Virus record (IMG/VR): IMGVR_UViG_2778261224_000010
Source: a virus
Taxonomy: Duplodnaviria > Heunggongvirae > Uroviricota > Caudoviricetes
DNA length: 4,537 nucleotides
Strand: one strand, 5' to 3'
The translations under genes and the position numbers were made by a program. Of the stretch, positions 1 through 4,537 are shown piece by piece. A model generated the notes under the pieces. That model saw only the letters and a program-made list of their open reading frames with translations. It had not been told where the DNA came from and did not search any database. Within the stretch, counting starts at the first letter, position 1, and every line of letters starts with the position of its first letter.

Positions 1-1719
1 CAAAGCGAGAGCGCGGCAGCCGGTTCTGCGACTTCAGCAGCTGGATCAGCAACTGCTGCGGCTAACAGCCAGAAAGCAGCGAAGACGAGTGAAACTAACG
101 CAAAGTCCAGCCAGACGGCAGCGAAGACCAGCGAAACGAATGCTAAAGCCAGCGAAACTGCGGCGAAAAGCAGTCAGGATGCAGCAGCTGAAAGCGAGAG
201 TGCCGCAGCTGGTTCTGCAAGTGCGGCGGCTGCTTCTGCCACTGCATCAGCAAACAGTCAAAAAGCTGCAAAAACCAGTGAAACCAATGCAAAGACAAGC
301 GAGACTGCAGCGGCGAACTCGGCGCAAGCATCGGCAGCAAGCCAGACAGCAGCTAAAGCAAGTGAGGATGCAGCCAGAGAGTATGCAAGCCAGGCTGCGG
401 AGCCGTATAAACAAGTATTGCAGCCGCTTCCTGATGTGTGGATACCATTTAACGATTCACTGGATATGATTACGGGGTTTTCGCCATCATATAAAAAGAT
501 TGTTATTGGTGATGATGAAATAACGATGCCTGGCGACAAGGTTGTTAAGTTTAAACGCGCATCGAAAGCAACCTATATTAATAAATCTGGTGTGCTGACA
601 GAGGCTGCCATTGACGAGCCACGATTTGAACGTGATGGCCTGCTTATTGAGGGACAAAGAACGAACTTCTTCCAGAACAGTACAGACCCTTCGAAGTGGA
701 ATAAGTCAACTTCACTGGACGTTACAGAAACAGGCACAGATAGTTTCGGTTTTAATTATGGCCGGTTTGTCGTACAGGATTCGATTGTTGGCACAAGTAA
801 AGCGCATACCATTATAGGGCTGTATTCAAGTACCGGAGGGGTTGATACTTCAGGTGACGAAAAGTATGTAACTATATCCTGCCGGGTAAAAAGTGAAGTT
901 GATAATATCGCCGTTCGTATTTTATTTGAACATTATGATGGGGAAGTAAGGACATCAATAGGAACAGCAAGCCTGAACCTTACCACCCGCATAATTAGCA
1001 AGACGGGTCAGACAAGCCGTGTTACAGCAAGGTCTGTTAAGGATGATGCAACTGGCTGGATATTTTTTGAGGCTACATTAAAAGCAGATACAACAGAAAA
1101 TACGGTTGGTGGTTTCGTCCAGTATTCTCCGGATACAGGGCAGATGGTGGCATCAGGGGATTGTCTCGATGTAACCACTCCACAGATTGAGGCTGGTACA
1201 GGCGCATCATCTTTTATTGTTACGGGGGCGGCACCGGTAACGCGGGCAAGCGATATAGTTACAGTCCCAATTAAGAATAATCTTTATAATCTTCCTTTTA
1301 CGGTTCTTTGTGAGGTACATAAGAACTGGTATAAAACGCCAAATGCAGCACCGCGTGTTTTTGATACCGGCGGTCATCAAACCGGAGCGGCTATCATTCT
1401 TGGCTTCTGTTCTTCAGCAGATTACGACGGATTTCCTTGTTGCGATATTGGTGGGTCTAACAGACGGATAAACGAAAATGCATCACTTGAAAAAATGGTT
1501 ATGGGGATGCGTGTAAAGTCTGATCAGTCTACATGCGCAGTAAGTAACGGGCGTATATCCAGCGAAACAAAAACCACATGGTCATATATTCAGAACTCCG
1601 CAATTATCCGTATTGGAGGCCAGACTACAGCCGGTTTACGCCATTTATTTGGTCATATCAGGAATTTCAGAATATGGCACAAGGCATTGACTGATGCTCA
1701 GATGGGGGAGTCAATCTAA
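1..1719 (+). CDS. Side tail fiber protein, C-terminal portion (5' end lies upstream of the window)
   Basis: Frame 1 is open from base 1 to TAA at 1717-1719 and translates as QSESAAAGSATSAAGSATAAANSQKAAKTSETNAKSSQTAAKTSETNAK..., the Ala/Ser/Thr/Lys-rich repeat typical of lambdoid side tail fibers as I recall them. The listed ORF 418..1719 is in the same frame, so its Met is internal. The C-terminal ~430 aa is a globular, beta-rich distal domain ending in a LamG/ConA-like motif (FRIWHKALTDAQM). Confidence 0.88.
   Translation, partial: QSESAAAGSATSAAGSATAAANSQKAAKTSETNAKSSQTAAKTSETNAKASETAAKSSQDAAAESESAAAGSASAAAASATASANSQKAAKTSETNAKTSETAAANSAQASAASQTAAKASEDAAREYASQAAEPYKQVLQPLPDVWIPFNDSLDMITGFSPSYKKIVIGDDEITMPGDKVVKFKRASKATYINKSGVLTEAAIDEPRFERDGLLIEGQRTNFFQNSTDPSKWNKSTSLDVTETGTDSFGFNYGRFVVQDSIVGTSKAHTIIGLYSSTGGVDTSGDEKYVTISCRVKSEVDNIAVRILFEHYDGEVRTSIGTASLNLTTRIISKTGQTSRVTARSVKDDATGWIFFEATLKADTTENTVGGFVQYSPDTGQMVASGDCLDVTTPQIEAGTGASSFIVTGAAPVTRASDIVTVPIKNNLYNLPFTVLCEVHKNWYKTPNAAPRVFDTGGHQTGAAIILGFCSSADYDGFPCCDIGGSNRRINENASLEKMVMGMRVKSDQSTCAVSNGRISSETKTTWSYIQNSAIIRIGGQTTAGLRHLFGHIRNFRIWHKALTDAQMGESI
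4..294. repeat. Two imperfect direct repeats of about 100 bp (4-105 and 193-294, offset 189 bp = 63 codons) inside the tail fiber gene
   Basis: Copy 1 encodes SESAAAGSATSAAGSATAAANSQKAAKTSETNAK and copy 2 SESAAAGSASAAAASATASANSQKAAKTSETNAK. Shorter KTSETNAK units recur at about 82-105, 121-144 and 271-294. DNA identity is roughly 70 percent by eye. Confidence 0.7.
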
Positions 1720-2000
1720 TGAAAGATTTAACACTCAAATTTGCAGACAGGGCCGACTTTTCGGCCTTTATGGATAGCACTGGCTATTATGATGACGAGT
1801 CGATGCAGGATGATATTCTTATTGACGTGATAGGTAACGTGTACAAAGAAACCGGAGAACTGACTGAAGATGGCGAACCGGTATGTGTTAAGGAAGACGG
1901 ATATTTTGTAAACGTGCGCATCATTAATGATTCGCAAATATCGTCATTATTCGATGAATACGCGGTTGCTGTTGAGCATCAACTTCGTGGCTGGATGTGA
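1719..2000 (+). CDS. Hypothetical small acidic protein (93 aa), translationally coupled to the tail fiber gene
   Basis: ATG at 1719-1721 overlaps the tail fiber stop (TAATG). Shine-Dalgarno GGGGGAG at 1704-1710, 8 nt upstream. About 21 Asp/Glu against 7 Lys/Arg, so strongly acidic. I do not recognise the family. Confidence 0.7.
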   Translation: MKDLTLKFADRADFSAFMDSTGYYDDESMQDDILIDVIGNVYKETGELTEDGEPVCVKEDGYFVNVRIINDSQISSLFDEYAVAVEHQLRGWM

Positions 2001-2009
2001 GGAAGGAAA

Positions 2010-2714
2010 ATGGCTACATCGACAGTAATTCCAGGAGACATCACCACGTTAAAGGGAGATGTCAGTAAAGCCAAGGAAGATATTTCCTCAATTAACGGAA
2101 AAGTATCAACGCTTCAGACTGAGATGACCAGTGCAAAGCAGGATATCAGCTCCAGATACACAAAAACTGAAGTTGATAATAAGCTGAAAAACAAAGTGGA
2201 AGTGAACGATCTGGAAAGTGGTCGTTATGGCGGAGATTTTTATCCACTGACAGGTCGTGAAGCGTTTTATTTATGGAATTTGGCCACGACTACAGCGGCG
2301 GCAAACCTTTATCTTAATCCTGACCCTGCAATTTCGTCTGTACTGCGGTCAACATCGTCTATCCGCTATAAGCATTCAGTAGAGACGATAGATTCAGAGC
2401 ACGCCGATCTCATTTTCAAGATGCGCCCTGTGTGGTACAGGTCGCAATGCGAAAATGACAGGCGTGACTGGGGATTCTACGGATTGATTGCCGAGGAAGT
2501 AGGAGAAATTGCCCCTCAGTTTGTACACTGGCGACCAGCTAACGAGAATGATGCTCCTGAAGCTATTTCCAGCAATGGCCTTGTTGCCGAAGGTGTAATG
2601 TACGAACGTCTGGTTGTTCCACTGATTCACCATATCCAGAAACTGACTGAAAGAGTTGATGAACTTGAGTCAGAATTAAAGTTGTTATCAACTTCCCGAA
2701 GCGATATCGGATAA
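2010..2714 (+). CDS. Tail-fiber-like protein: N-terminal coiled coil plus C-terminal intramolecular chaperone (peptidase S74-like, self-cleaving) domain
   Basis: ATG at 2010 with GAGGAAGGA (1999-2007) just upstream. Residues 10-70 are heptad-like (DITTLKGDVSKAKEDISSINGKVSTLQTEM...). The C-terminal half matches the endosialidase-chaperone pattern recalled from memory: S116-S-I-R-Y-K121 (Ser...Lys with conserved Arg, about 2355-2372), GLIAEEVGEIAPQFV, and a terminal helix YERLVVPLIHHIQKLTERVDELESEL. Confidence 0.8.
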   Translation: MATSTVIPGDITTLKGDVSKAKEDISSINGKVSTLQTEMTSAKQDISSRYTKTEVDNKLKNKVEVNDLESGRYGGDFYPLTGREAFYLWNLATTTAAANLYLNPDPAISSVLRSTSSIRYKHSVETIDSEHADLIFKMRPVWYRSQCENDRRDWGFYGLIAEEVGEIAPQFVHWRPANENDAPEAISSNGLVAEGVMYERLVVPLIHHIQKLTERVDELESELKLLSTSRSDIG

Positions 2715-2724
2715 AGGAGGAGTA

Positions 2725-3012
2725 ATGGATATAACACCTTTCCTTCATGCACTTTGTGCTGTGGCTGCACAGGTACTGGTTGGTCTTTTTACCGGAAACT
2801 GGGCTTACGGTGCGATAGCTGGTTGTACGTTCTTCATCGCTCGTGAACATACCCAGGCAGAATATCGCTGGATTGAAATGTTCGGGCATGGCAAGCGTAT
2901 GAATATGCCGTGGTGGGGCGGTTTTGATCCACGCGCGTGGGATGTGGCAAGCCTGATGGATTTTGCTGTGCCGGTGGTGCCGTGTCTGCTGATCTGGATG
3001 TTGATCCGTTAA
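2725..3012 (+). CDS. Hypothetical small membrane protein (95 aa, 2-3 predicted transmembrane segments)
   Basis: Strong Shine-Dalgarno AAGGAGGAG (2714-2722) 4 nt before ATG at 2725. Hydrophobic stretches PFLHALCAVAAQVLVGLF, AYGAIAGCTFFIA and ASLMDFAVPVVPCLLIWMLI, with a Trp-rich segment MPWWGGFDPRAW between them. Last gene of the + strand cluster. No recognisable family. Confidence 0.7.
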   Translation: MDITPFLHALCAVAAQVLVGLFTGNWAYGAIAGCTFFIAREHTQAEYRWIEMFGHGKRMNMPWWGGFDPRAWDVASLMDFAVPVVPCLLIWMLIR

Positions 3013-3028: not shown

Positions 3029-3062
3029 GCCGCAGTAACTTGTCATGATAGGATACTGCGGC
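3029..3062 (-). terminator. Rho-independent terminator candidate for the minus-strand int/dinI unit (weaker bidirectional function possible)
   Basis: Perfect 9-bp inverted repeat GCCGCAGTA (3029-3037) / TACTGCGGC (3054-3062) with a 16-nt loop. On the - strand the stem is followed by TTTTTACTTTTTATATTT. On the + strand no good U-tract follows. It lies between the convergent gene ends at 3012 and 3130. Confidence 0.55.
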
Positions 3063-3129
3063 TGGCTGGTTAACTTTCGATAGTGCGAGTATTGAATGAT
3101 TTCCAGCCGTTACTGATTTTACGTGCTAA

Positions 3130-3378
3130 TTAGTGAACAAACCACTCGTCAGCAGACTCCCAGGTATCTTTCAGAGTTTCCTGAACAAAAGTTTTAGCTG
3201 AATCTTTATCGGCGGTGCGCGTAACAGAAAGGCCATCGTTGCTGGTGGCTTTTACGATCACCTCTACATCGTCATAACGTTTACTGATGCGTCGGGTTAA
3301 TTCTTCCTTTAACGCATCCACAGCACCGTTTGGCATTTTAGTCATTTTTTCTTTGGCTATGCAGATCTCAATACGCAT
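3130..3378 (-). CDS. dinI: DinI-family (DNA-damage-inducible protein I-like) protein, 82 aa
   Basis: Translation [35 protein letters not shown]...[33 protein letters not shown] shares the MRIE..IAK..GA(I/V)DAL..EL(S/T)RRI..LSV..ETWESAD(D/E)WFV signature of E. coli DinI as I recall it. Shine-Dalgarno AGAGGGA (complement of about 3383-3389) upstream of ATG at 3376-3378. Two LexA boxes lie immediately upstream. Confidence 0.88.
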
Positions 3379-3413: not shown

Positions 3414-3443
3414 ATTTTTAACTGTATGGATAAACAGTGTCAA
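3414..3443 (-). promoter_or_regulatory. Candidate sigma70 promoter of the dinI-like gene
   Basis: On the - strand, TTGACA (complement of 3438-3443, overlapping the int stop codon at 3440-3442) is followed 17 nt later by TAAAAA(T) (complement of 3414-3420). The -35 is perfect, the -10 imperfect. LexA box 2 occupies the spacer and box 1 the start/leader region. Confidence 0.5.
3420..3439 (-). promoter_or_regulatory. LexA (SOS) box 2, within the promoter spacer
   Basis: AACTGTATGGATAAACAGTG: CTGT (3422-3425), 8 nt, ACAG (3434-3437). It lies 12 nt from box 1 and falls between the candidate -35 and -10 elements. Confidence 0.75.
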
Positions 3444-4537
3444 GAGGTCTTATTTCTGCTCCTTTGGAGCTCTTCAAAACGATTATGTAAAGATTTCGGA
3501 TACAGTTCGGTATATACCTGCCATAGCACGTTTAATGAACGATGCCCTGTAACCTGAGCGACTTCCTCAATACTAAAACCAGCCTCAAATAAGCGACTTG
3601 CCCCTTCTCTACGCAAATCATGGTATCGCAGATCTTTAATACCTAATTTGCTTCTTACCCTCTGAAATCCTGCAGTAACAGAAGTGCTGTTATATGGAAA
3701 AATGAATTCCGATTTTTTGGGCTGTCGTTGGACGATATCCCAGGCTTCCCCAAGCAAGGCTACTTTCATGTGGTTGCCTTCCTTTTTGCGTGGATCTTTC
3801 CTGTCTCTTACGAGTATAGATTTTTGTTCCTGGTCGAGATCTTCCCATCGTAACCGGCATACTTCTCCGATCCGCATACAGGACCACACAGAAAATTTGA
3901 GGATATCAACGAACGGAATTTTTGAGCATTTATGAGTAGATCGTTGTTGAAGGCCTTCAATGAGCATGTCCAGTTCATCAGATGCTGGTCTACGATTACG
4001 ACGGTTTGATTTACCAATCAAACCAAGTTTAAGTAGATATGGGCGAGCGCTTTTCGCCGGGTTTGATGTGTAATTAATTCCGTATACAGGTTTGGCCGCA
4101 TCCAGAACACTGCCAAGATAACTAACATCGTGGCTGACTGTTGCTGGACCTGCACCAGCGTTGTTTCTTAGCCTGCAATGTTCAATTACGTCATTTTCTG
4201 TCAGTTCAGATAGTTTGATCGCGGAGATGTCACTATCCATAAGCAGTTCCAGCACATATCTTTTAGTACGGCCTGCTTTACCTCCGGCATTTGGGTCATT
4301 TAAATATTTGTGTAGTAAGTCACGGACTGTAAGTCCGTCAACTGCATTTGATGATGGAATGCCATATAGATCTAATTCCATCACTTTCTGTGTTCCCCAT
4401 GTTTTGGCATGAGCATGTTTAGGGAATGTTTTGCTTTCCCTGTAAGTGATAACACCTTTTTCTTTGATAATCACATTACAGCGATAGCGTGGTGTGCCAT
4501 CGGATTTTAGTCGTTTCTCTATGTTATAGTACGCCAT
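3440..4537 (-). CDS. int: Phage tyrosine-type integrase (site-specific recombinase)
   Basis: 365-aa ORF from ATG at 4535-4537 (at the window edge, so the true N-terminus could lie further out) to TGA at 3440-3442. The C-terminal catalytic domain carries the tyrosine recombinase residues: Arg in SCMRIGEVCRLRWEDLD, H-x-x-R in LRYHDLRREGASRLF, and His/Tyr in GHRSLNVLWQVY. Confidence 0.9.
   Translation of the reverse strand: MAYYNIEKRLKSDGTPRYRCNVIIKEKGVITYRESKTFPKHAHAKTWGTQKVMELDLYGIPSSNAVDGLTVRDLLHKYLNDPNAGGKAGRTKRYVLELLMDSDISAIKLSELTENDVIEHCRLRNNAGAGPATVSHDVSYLGSVLDAAKPVYGINYTSNPAKSARPYLLKLGLIGKSNRRNRRPASDELDMLIEGLQQRSTHKCSKIPFVDILKFSVWSCMRIGEVCRLRWEDLDQEQKSILVRDRKDPRKKEGNHMKVALLGEAWDIVQRQPKKSEFIFPYNSTSVTAGFQRVRSKLGIKDLRYHDLRREGASRLFEAGFSIEEVAQVTGHRSLNVLWQVYTELYPKSLHNRFEELQRSRNKTS

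Follow-up and report, generated by a model that had tools for sequence, protein, structure and literature searches.

The genes of the fibre chaperones known from phages, among them Tfa of lambda, gpU of Mu, G of P2 and gp38 of T4, typically follow the fibre gene directly. Peptidase_S74 domains act in cis and cleave themselves off. This work concerns a small open reading frame (ORF) of 93 amino acids (aa) that lies at positions 1719..2000 (+ strand) of a stretch of viral DNA of 4,537 nucleotides (nt) (IMG/VR record IMGVR_UViG_2778261224_000010), to which we refer as the window and which is the right end of an Escherichia coli lambdoid prophage. The ORF starts where a side tail fibre gene ends. 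The ORF is a genuine gene rather than a chance reading frame, and its strict association with one type of fibre C-terminus suggests that it probably encodes a fibre-dedicated assembly or accessory factor acting on a conserved LamG-type scaffold.

For the fibres of Alteromonas phages it has been described that the dependence on a chaperone may vary, and 'transient chaperone caps' were proposed (PMC10579305). In phage IrisVonRoten (Bas32) the tip of fibre protein gp22 was described by the BASEL authors as a protruding galectin-like domain, and their 2025 paper models gp22 and gp24 while it assigns no role to gp23 (PMC11990801). The name of the proximal fibre varies in that paper, with Gp22 used in a figure legend but Gp23 in the text (PMC11990801); the product of bas32_0023, which is annotated as 'tail fiber protein', is actually a 92-aa homologue of the protein studied here.

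A conserved small gene at the end of the fibre gene

The product of the small ORF (MKDLTLKF...HQLRGWM, 10.6 kDa) contains 13 Asp and 8 Glu residues versus 4 Lys and 3 Arg, with a net charge of -14 and an isoelectric point (pI) of 4.05. The TAA stop codon of the fibre gene (1717-1719) and the ATG of the small ORF (1719-1721) share one base (TAATG), and 8 nt separate this ATG from the Shine-Dalgarno-like sequence GGGGGAG (1704-1710). Five homologous loci of other phage groups likewise have AGGAG- or GGAG-like strings at the equivalent place, inside the 3'-terminal codons of the fibre gene. A scan of the + strand revealed no promoter-like or terminator-like site between the fibre gene and the small ORF. 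The original prediction, which was made from the letters of the window, had pointed out the 93-aa ORF, the TAATG overlap, the Shine-Dalgarno sequence and the net charge of about -14, and all of these are confirmed from the sequence. Its suggestion that this is a real gene coupled to the fibre is borne out by the overlap together with the family match, the substitution pattern and the prevalence of the gene.

The protein matches the phrog_1361 profile, annotated as "unknown function", over its full length (residues 1-93 on profile positions 1-92 of 92; E 1.5e-45, 154 bits). At 90% identity 227 protein clusters match the small ORF, and each of them bears the name "hypothetical" or "prophage protein". 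When 1.84 billion protein representatives were scanned exhaustively with HMMER, only 50 clusters at 50% identity were obtained, the full-length members of which vary from 76 to 124 aa, and a second, profile-based homologue search gave only close relatives among the matches listed and added no distant members. For 31 distinct window-type alleles, the ratio of nonsynonymous to synonymous substitution rates (dN/dS) amounts to about 0.39, which indicates purifying selection on the small ORF. Of 5426 complete E. coli genomes, 988 carry the gene, and a single genome can have as many as five copies. No match to the small ORF was found in Pfam, NCBIfam, PADLOC or the PDB sequences.

Conserved features of the family alignment are L-x-D-x-I-G, G-Y-F-V-N-V-R and a C-terminal P-x-R-x-W, which in the window protein appear as LIDVIG, GYFVNVR and HQLRGW, the Pro being replaced by Gln in this allele. 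Gly39 and Arg90 are invariant and Val64 and Asn65 nearly so. With 19 diverse family members as input, AlphaFold2 predicted with confidence (pLDDT 86.6, pTM 0.72) a small α/β fold in the order beta-alpha-alpha-beta-beta-beta-beta, followed by a short helix and a C-terminal tail. A BFVD fold search with this model matched only uncharacterised proteins of uncultured phages. The literature on the BASEL lateral fibres, LtfA/LtfB, the RcGTA head spike, AKFV33 and rV5 proteomics, stf chimeras and Gostya9 contains no description of the small protein.

The strong acidity had also given rise to the suggestion of a DNA mimic of the Ocr/ArdA type, an anti-restriction protein in which negative charge would block type I restriction-modification or BREX systems. 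Ocr (T7 gp0.3) and ArdA are likewise small and very acidic, and most members of the present family are acidic as well (net charge -8 to -18), but it is only the charge and the pI of the window protein that point in this direction, and we consider such a function very improbable. Over the whole family the net charge extends from -18 to -1. The clear homologues of AKFV33, SP15 and WP85 (E 1e-21 to 1e-24) carry net charges of just -4, -2 and -1, and these near-neutral members indicate that charge is not the conserved feature. Pfam-A, which includes the Ocr and ArdA families, is among the databases that gave no match, and the predicted fold has no likeness to Ocr or ArdA. The genetic position differs too. 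Known anti-restriction genes, such as T7 gene 0.3 and those in plasmid leading regions, are expressed first, whereas the small gene is coupled to a fibre gene and always found within late tail fibre operons, those of virulent phages included. In AKFV33, ORFs 135-158 form a late-gene block and orf136, the homologue of the small ORF, lies inside it (PMC3326045). A false lead that was suggested by acidity alone, and against which the diversity of the family argues, can thus be set aside.

Pairing with a conserved fibre module

The C-terminal part of the upstream fibre, about 433 aa, is a module that matches a PHROG tail protein family (Table 1). NCBIfam GTA_spike_fiber matches aa 76-277 of this module (E 1.1e-18), Laminin_G_3 matches weakly at aa 381-428, and the RcGTA head spike fibre Rcc01080 (PDB 6TB9) is matched weakly at the sequence level; the upstream fibre gave no match to Peptidase_S74 (PF13884). 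The window fibre ends in the LamG/ConA-like motif IRIGGQT..G.RHLFGHIRNFRIWHKALTD, and the motif shared by the fibre ends across loci is IR(I/F)GGQT..G.RHLFGHI(R/K)N.R.W...L.D. The partner of the small protein would be this class of fibre, in which the last ~430 residues appear to combine an RcGTA-head-spike-like domain with a LamG/ConA-like end. The last ~433 aa are common to the fibres of phage 21, VogelGryff, VSe12, CarlMeissner and PhiR55_1 (41-71% identity). The N-terminal parts of these fibres are unrelated and attach to different tails. The module is itself a mosaic: in the loci L006-L085 the GTA_spike_fiber-like region (aa 81-280) is a swappable cassette between the conserved flanks aa 1-80 and aa 281-433. 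Upstream of the module, positions 1-417 (+ strand) of the window encode a part of the fibre with degenerate repeats rich in Ala, Ser, Glu and Lys, for example SESAAAGSA and AAKTSETNAK, and these repeats give multiple offset BLAST matches to other fibres.

The small-ORF family was detected by tblastn in 181 phage records, which belong to lambdoid phages (including phage 21), Drexlerviridae, Dhillonvirus, Queuovirinae, and the T5-like and rV5-like phages, with rV5 itself not among the carriers found. In annotated records the match overlaps, with few exceptions, a gene labelled as tail fibre or tail protein. Ten loci were inspected, namely those of the lambdoid phages PhiR55_1 and 21, the Seuratvirus VogelGryff, the Vequintavirus CarlMeissner, the Tequintavirus phages VSe12, IrisVonRoten, AKFV33, SP15 and WP85, and one metagenomic contig. 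In all ten the start of the small gene falls between -4 and +2 nt relative to the end of the fibre gene.

Co-occurrence was determined for 86 loci, which comprise 80 loci kept from 460 IMG/VR relatives of the module, the window, and the first five phage loci. A family member is adjacent to the module in 85 of them, and in the lone exception the contig has 27 nt left. In the phage collection 204 records contain the whole module, as compared to 181 with a window-like small ORF and about 21 with the divergent SP15 type, which means that module and small ORF are present close to one to one. The association extends to P0161, a family member of 31% identity, which directly follows a 622-aa protein that matches the flanks and the C-terminal motif of the module and itself follows a J-like tail-tip gene. 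In the metagenomic locus L091 the small gene is found directly downstream of a module-type fibre gene. The original prediction had proposed to examine conservation downstream of related stf genes, and this comparison reveals a strict pairing across phage families.

Some further observations were made in these records. For two other distant members, which lie on short contigs, the end of the preceding gene may be LamG-like as judged by eye. In phage 4A7 the fibre gene is interrupted near its end by an insertion sequence with three transposase ORFs, and the small ORF is displaced or lost. GenBank records of the series MG0656xx, OR8477xx and OR8483xx carry names such as 'Campylobacter phage' or 'Listeria phage' and are identical or nearly identical to rV5-like and T5-like phages of E. 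coli; they are probably mislabelled or contaminant assemblies.

Possible roles of the small protein

Located directly downstream of a fibre gene, translationally coupled to it and exchanged together with the fibre tip across phage families, the small ORF has the genetic behaviour of a fibre accessory protein. Judged from the overlap of start and stop codons and the Shine-Dalgarno sequence, translation of the small protein would be coupled to the end of the fibre message, and the protein would hence be made late and in step with the fibre. It may then bind the conserved scaffold of the C-terminal module, and not the variable receptor-binding cassette, and could help the module to fold or assemble, or keep it soluble. 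Such binding is a proposal that we build on the strict genetic coupling, the conservation and the predicted fold. One partner fibre, AKFV33 ORF137 (encoded next to orf136), was identified as a virion protein by mass spectrometry (PMC3326045). The original prediction had left the choice between a fibre chaperone and a DNA mimic; the accessory or chaperone reading fits the strict synteny with one fibre module in different phage families, whereas the DNA-mimic half found no support.

The part of the fibre that could be involved was examined by a segment-wise analysis of 67 distinct pairs, which replaced a comparison over the whole domain. Divergence of the small ORF follows that of the fibre flanks, with Spearman coefficients of 0.75 for aa 1-80 and of 0.73 and 0.81 for the two halves of aa 281-433, and correlates less with the variable cassette (0.49 and 0.56). 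Since the small ORF tracks the flanks over the cassette, it would be the conserved scaffold that is bound, if the fibre is bound at all.

Several points weigh against an assembly factor that acts on the scaffold. The correlation with the flanks may partly be plain physical linkage, although the flank of aa 1-80 lies beyond the cassette, so that linkage decay alone does not account for the pattern. Over the whole domain, the identities of fibre and small ORF to those of the window are negatively correlated (Spearman -0.43): fibres that are 86% identical to the window fibre carry small ORFs of just 30-41% identity, and fibres of 73% identity carry small ORFs that are 99% identical. In view of the former, any specificity must rest on a small number of conserved residues. 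In addition, the searched literature provided no experimental datum on any member of the family.

Charge was compared as well. The charge of the small ORF and that of the last 153 aa of the fibre show a Spearman correlation of +0.29 in bulk, which is the wrong direction for complementarity. The last ~153 residues of the AKFV33, SP15 and WP85 fibres are much less basic than those of other pairs. There may be charge co-adaptation in these three phages, which represent one lineage, and CarlMeissner is a counter-example.

A different explanation is that the small ORF is an unrelated moron (inserted accessory gene) or a host-directed effector that hitch-hikes with the 3' end of the fibre gene by recombination. 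The small-ORF allele does not co-vary with the receptor-binding cassette, as would suit such a passenger, and the lambdoid stf-int region is rich in accessory genes, represented here by the dinI-like gene and a 95-aa membrane protein and in phage 21 by sitABCD. However, the pairing has persisted through transfer into at least six phage groups that are unrelated, among them virulent phages with compact late operons, the overlap or abutment of start and stop is retained in those groups, and no module locus with downstream room lacks the small gene. This makes an unrelated passenger improbable, though less so than a DNA mimic. The original prediction had regarded the ORF as an unassigned gene in an accessory hotspot; it is carried along with the fibre C-terminus into phages without such a hotspot, and should therefore be seen as a part of the fibre module, not as a moron.

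The gene that follows the small ORF in the window introduces another possibility. This 234-aa ORF has the N-terminal motif MATSTVIPGDITTLK and a coiled coil, and its aa 116-172 (nt 2355-2525) form a Peptidase_S74 intramolecular chaperone (PF13884, E 3.7e-06). The window-type allele of the small ORF is always followed by a MATSTVIP.DI.TLK protein with an S74 chaperone, of 234 or 346 aa, and the T-x-I-P-x-D-I-T-x-L-K motif also opens the distal fibres of PhiR55_1, IrisVonRoten (gp24, "T-shaped"), AKFV33 (orf135) and VogelGryff (bas25_0024). The small protein could accordingly be a structural subunit that is retained on the virion as a cap or adaptor on the C-terminal module of the first fibre, either as a docking piece for a distal S74-type fibre or as a removable cap over the lectin-like tip. 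The synteny fits a retained subunit equally well, and in many loci a distal fibre comes next of which the N-terminal motif is conserved across lambdoid, T5-like and Seuratvirus phages. Moreover, a homologue is annotated as 'tail fiber protein' in two BASEL records, and the transient caps put forward for Alteromonas phage fibres offer a precedent (PMC10579305). On the other hand, phage 21, the B91-type and C88-type prophages and CarlMeissner carry the small ORF without a motif-bearing distal fibre, which ties the small protein to the first fibre and indicates that docking of a second fibre is not its core role. We found no virion proteomics listing the small protein, where the AKFV33 study covered just four gel bands (PMC3326045). 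All in all a retained subunit seems rather unlikely, but it is the alternative to be taken most seriously.

Even more speculative, and in our view quite unlikely, is that the family represents a new and structurally distinct kind of fibre partner acting in trans, which stays on the LamG-type tip as a removable acidic cap or as a platform for docking. If this were true, the lectin-like site would be masked by the cap while assembly and lysis proceed, and the cap would also anchor interchangeable distal fibres. Tip, cap and distal fibre would then form a portable three-part host-range cassette common to six phage groups. An assembly or accessory factor dedicated to the first fibre remains the role that we favour.

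Organization of the window

The features of the window are collected in Table 1. The same gene order is found in related temperate phages, for example PhiR55_1 and mEp460-like phages. Scans of the window with Rfam and for promoters and terminators gave nothing relevant.

Table 1. Features in the window (4,537 nt) with their positions and strands.
Feature	Position	Strand	Remarks
Side tail fibre gene, 3' part	ends 1719	+	gene start upstream of the window
C-terminal module of the side tail fibre, ~433 aa	418..1719	+	phrog_1419 tail protein, E 9.9e-216
Shine-Dalgarno-like GGGGGAG	1704..1710	+	inside last codons of the fibre gene; read from sequence
93-aa acidic ORF	1719..2000	+	family phrog_1361
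234-aa short distal-fibre-like ORF	2010..2714	+	Pfam PF13884 and PHROG tail fibre matches
95-aa membrane-type ORF	2725-3012	+	phrog_1443, unknown function
dinI-like gene	3130-3378	-	
Integrase gene	3440-4537	-	

The distal fibres of these loci differ in length, with 234 aa in the window, 346 aa in related loci and 574 aa in IrisVonRoten. The 234-aa ORF has almost no space for a receptor-binding domain and looks like a minimal or truncated distal fibre. The hydrophobic 95-aa ORF behind it is found directly after the small ORF in phage 21 and many prophages, and the phage 21 counterpart is annotated as a membrane protein with two transmembrane domains. This last gene of the late operon may be a moron or serve in exclusion. 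An inverted repeat (3037-3070) with a 9-bp stem (GCCGCAGTA...TACTGCGGC) and a T-run on the - strand lies in the gap where the + strand operon and the dinI-like gene converge. It was not picked up by the terminator scan due to its loop of 16 nt, and it is probably the dinI terminator.

Comparison with known fibre partners

About one sixth of the complete E. coli genomes and some 200 sequenced phages, BASEL models among them, carry the small gene, there called a "hypothetical protein". Should this common tip require it in order to function, it must move along when fibres are swapped to reprogramme host range. A role in assembly would further lengthen the short list of known fibre chaperones by a family with no relationship to them in sequence or fold. 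Such a result would be useful for annotation and fibre engineering and would not surprise a specialist.

The classical partners are the Caudo_TAP proteins lambda Tfa, Mu gpU (TfaMu) and P2 gpG. These are likewise small, encoded directly downstream of the fibre gene, and exchanged together with the C-terminal part of the fibre between unrelated phages. Sequence relationship is absent, as the small ORF has no Pfam, NCBIfam or PHROG tail fibre assembly match at E ≤ 1, and its predicted fold is unlike the solved Tfa structures. The remark in the original prediction that the protein does not resemble lambda-type Tfa therefore holds for both sequence and fold.

Peptidase_S74 domains, for example those of K1F endosialidase and T5 pb1, solve the same problem, which is the folding of the fibre C-terminus. 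The small ORF differs in that it encodes a separate polypeptide without similarity to S74 (PF13884); within the window, only the ORF behind it (2010-2714) has an S74 domain.

Direct homologues in the same order are found in IrisVonRoten (Bas32), where gp22-gp23-gp24 correspond to a proximal fibre with a 'galectin-like' C-terminal domain, the 92-aa homologue and a T-shaped S74 distal fibre (PMC11990801). A difference is the size of the distal fibre, which with 574 aa is much longer than the 234 aa in the window.

The closest described parallel is the fibre-plus-chaperone module of Alteromonas phages. The chaperones of V22 (gp27) and A5 differ in that they resemble S74 domains, to which the window protein has no match, and they belong to other hosts and another fibre type. 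As in the loci compared here, a fibre and its cognate small chaperone together form a host-recognition module that is found across phage morphotypes (PMC10579305).

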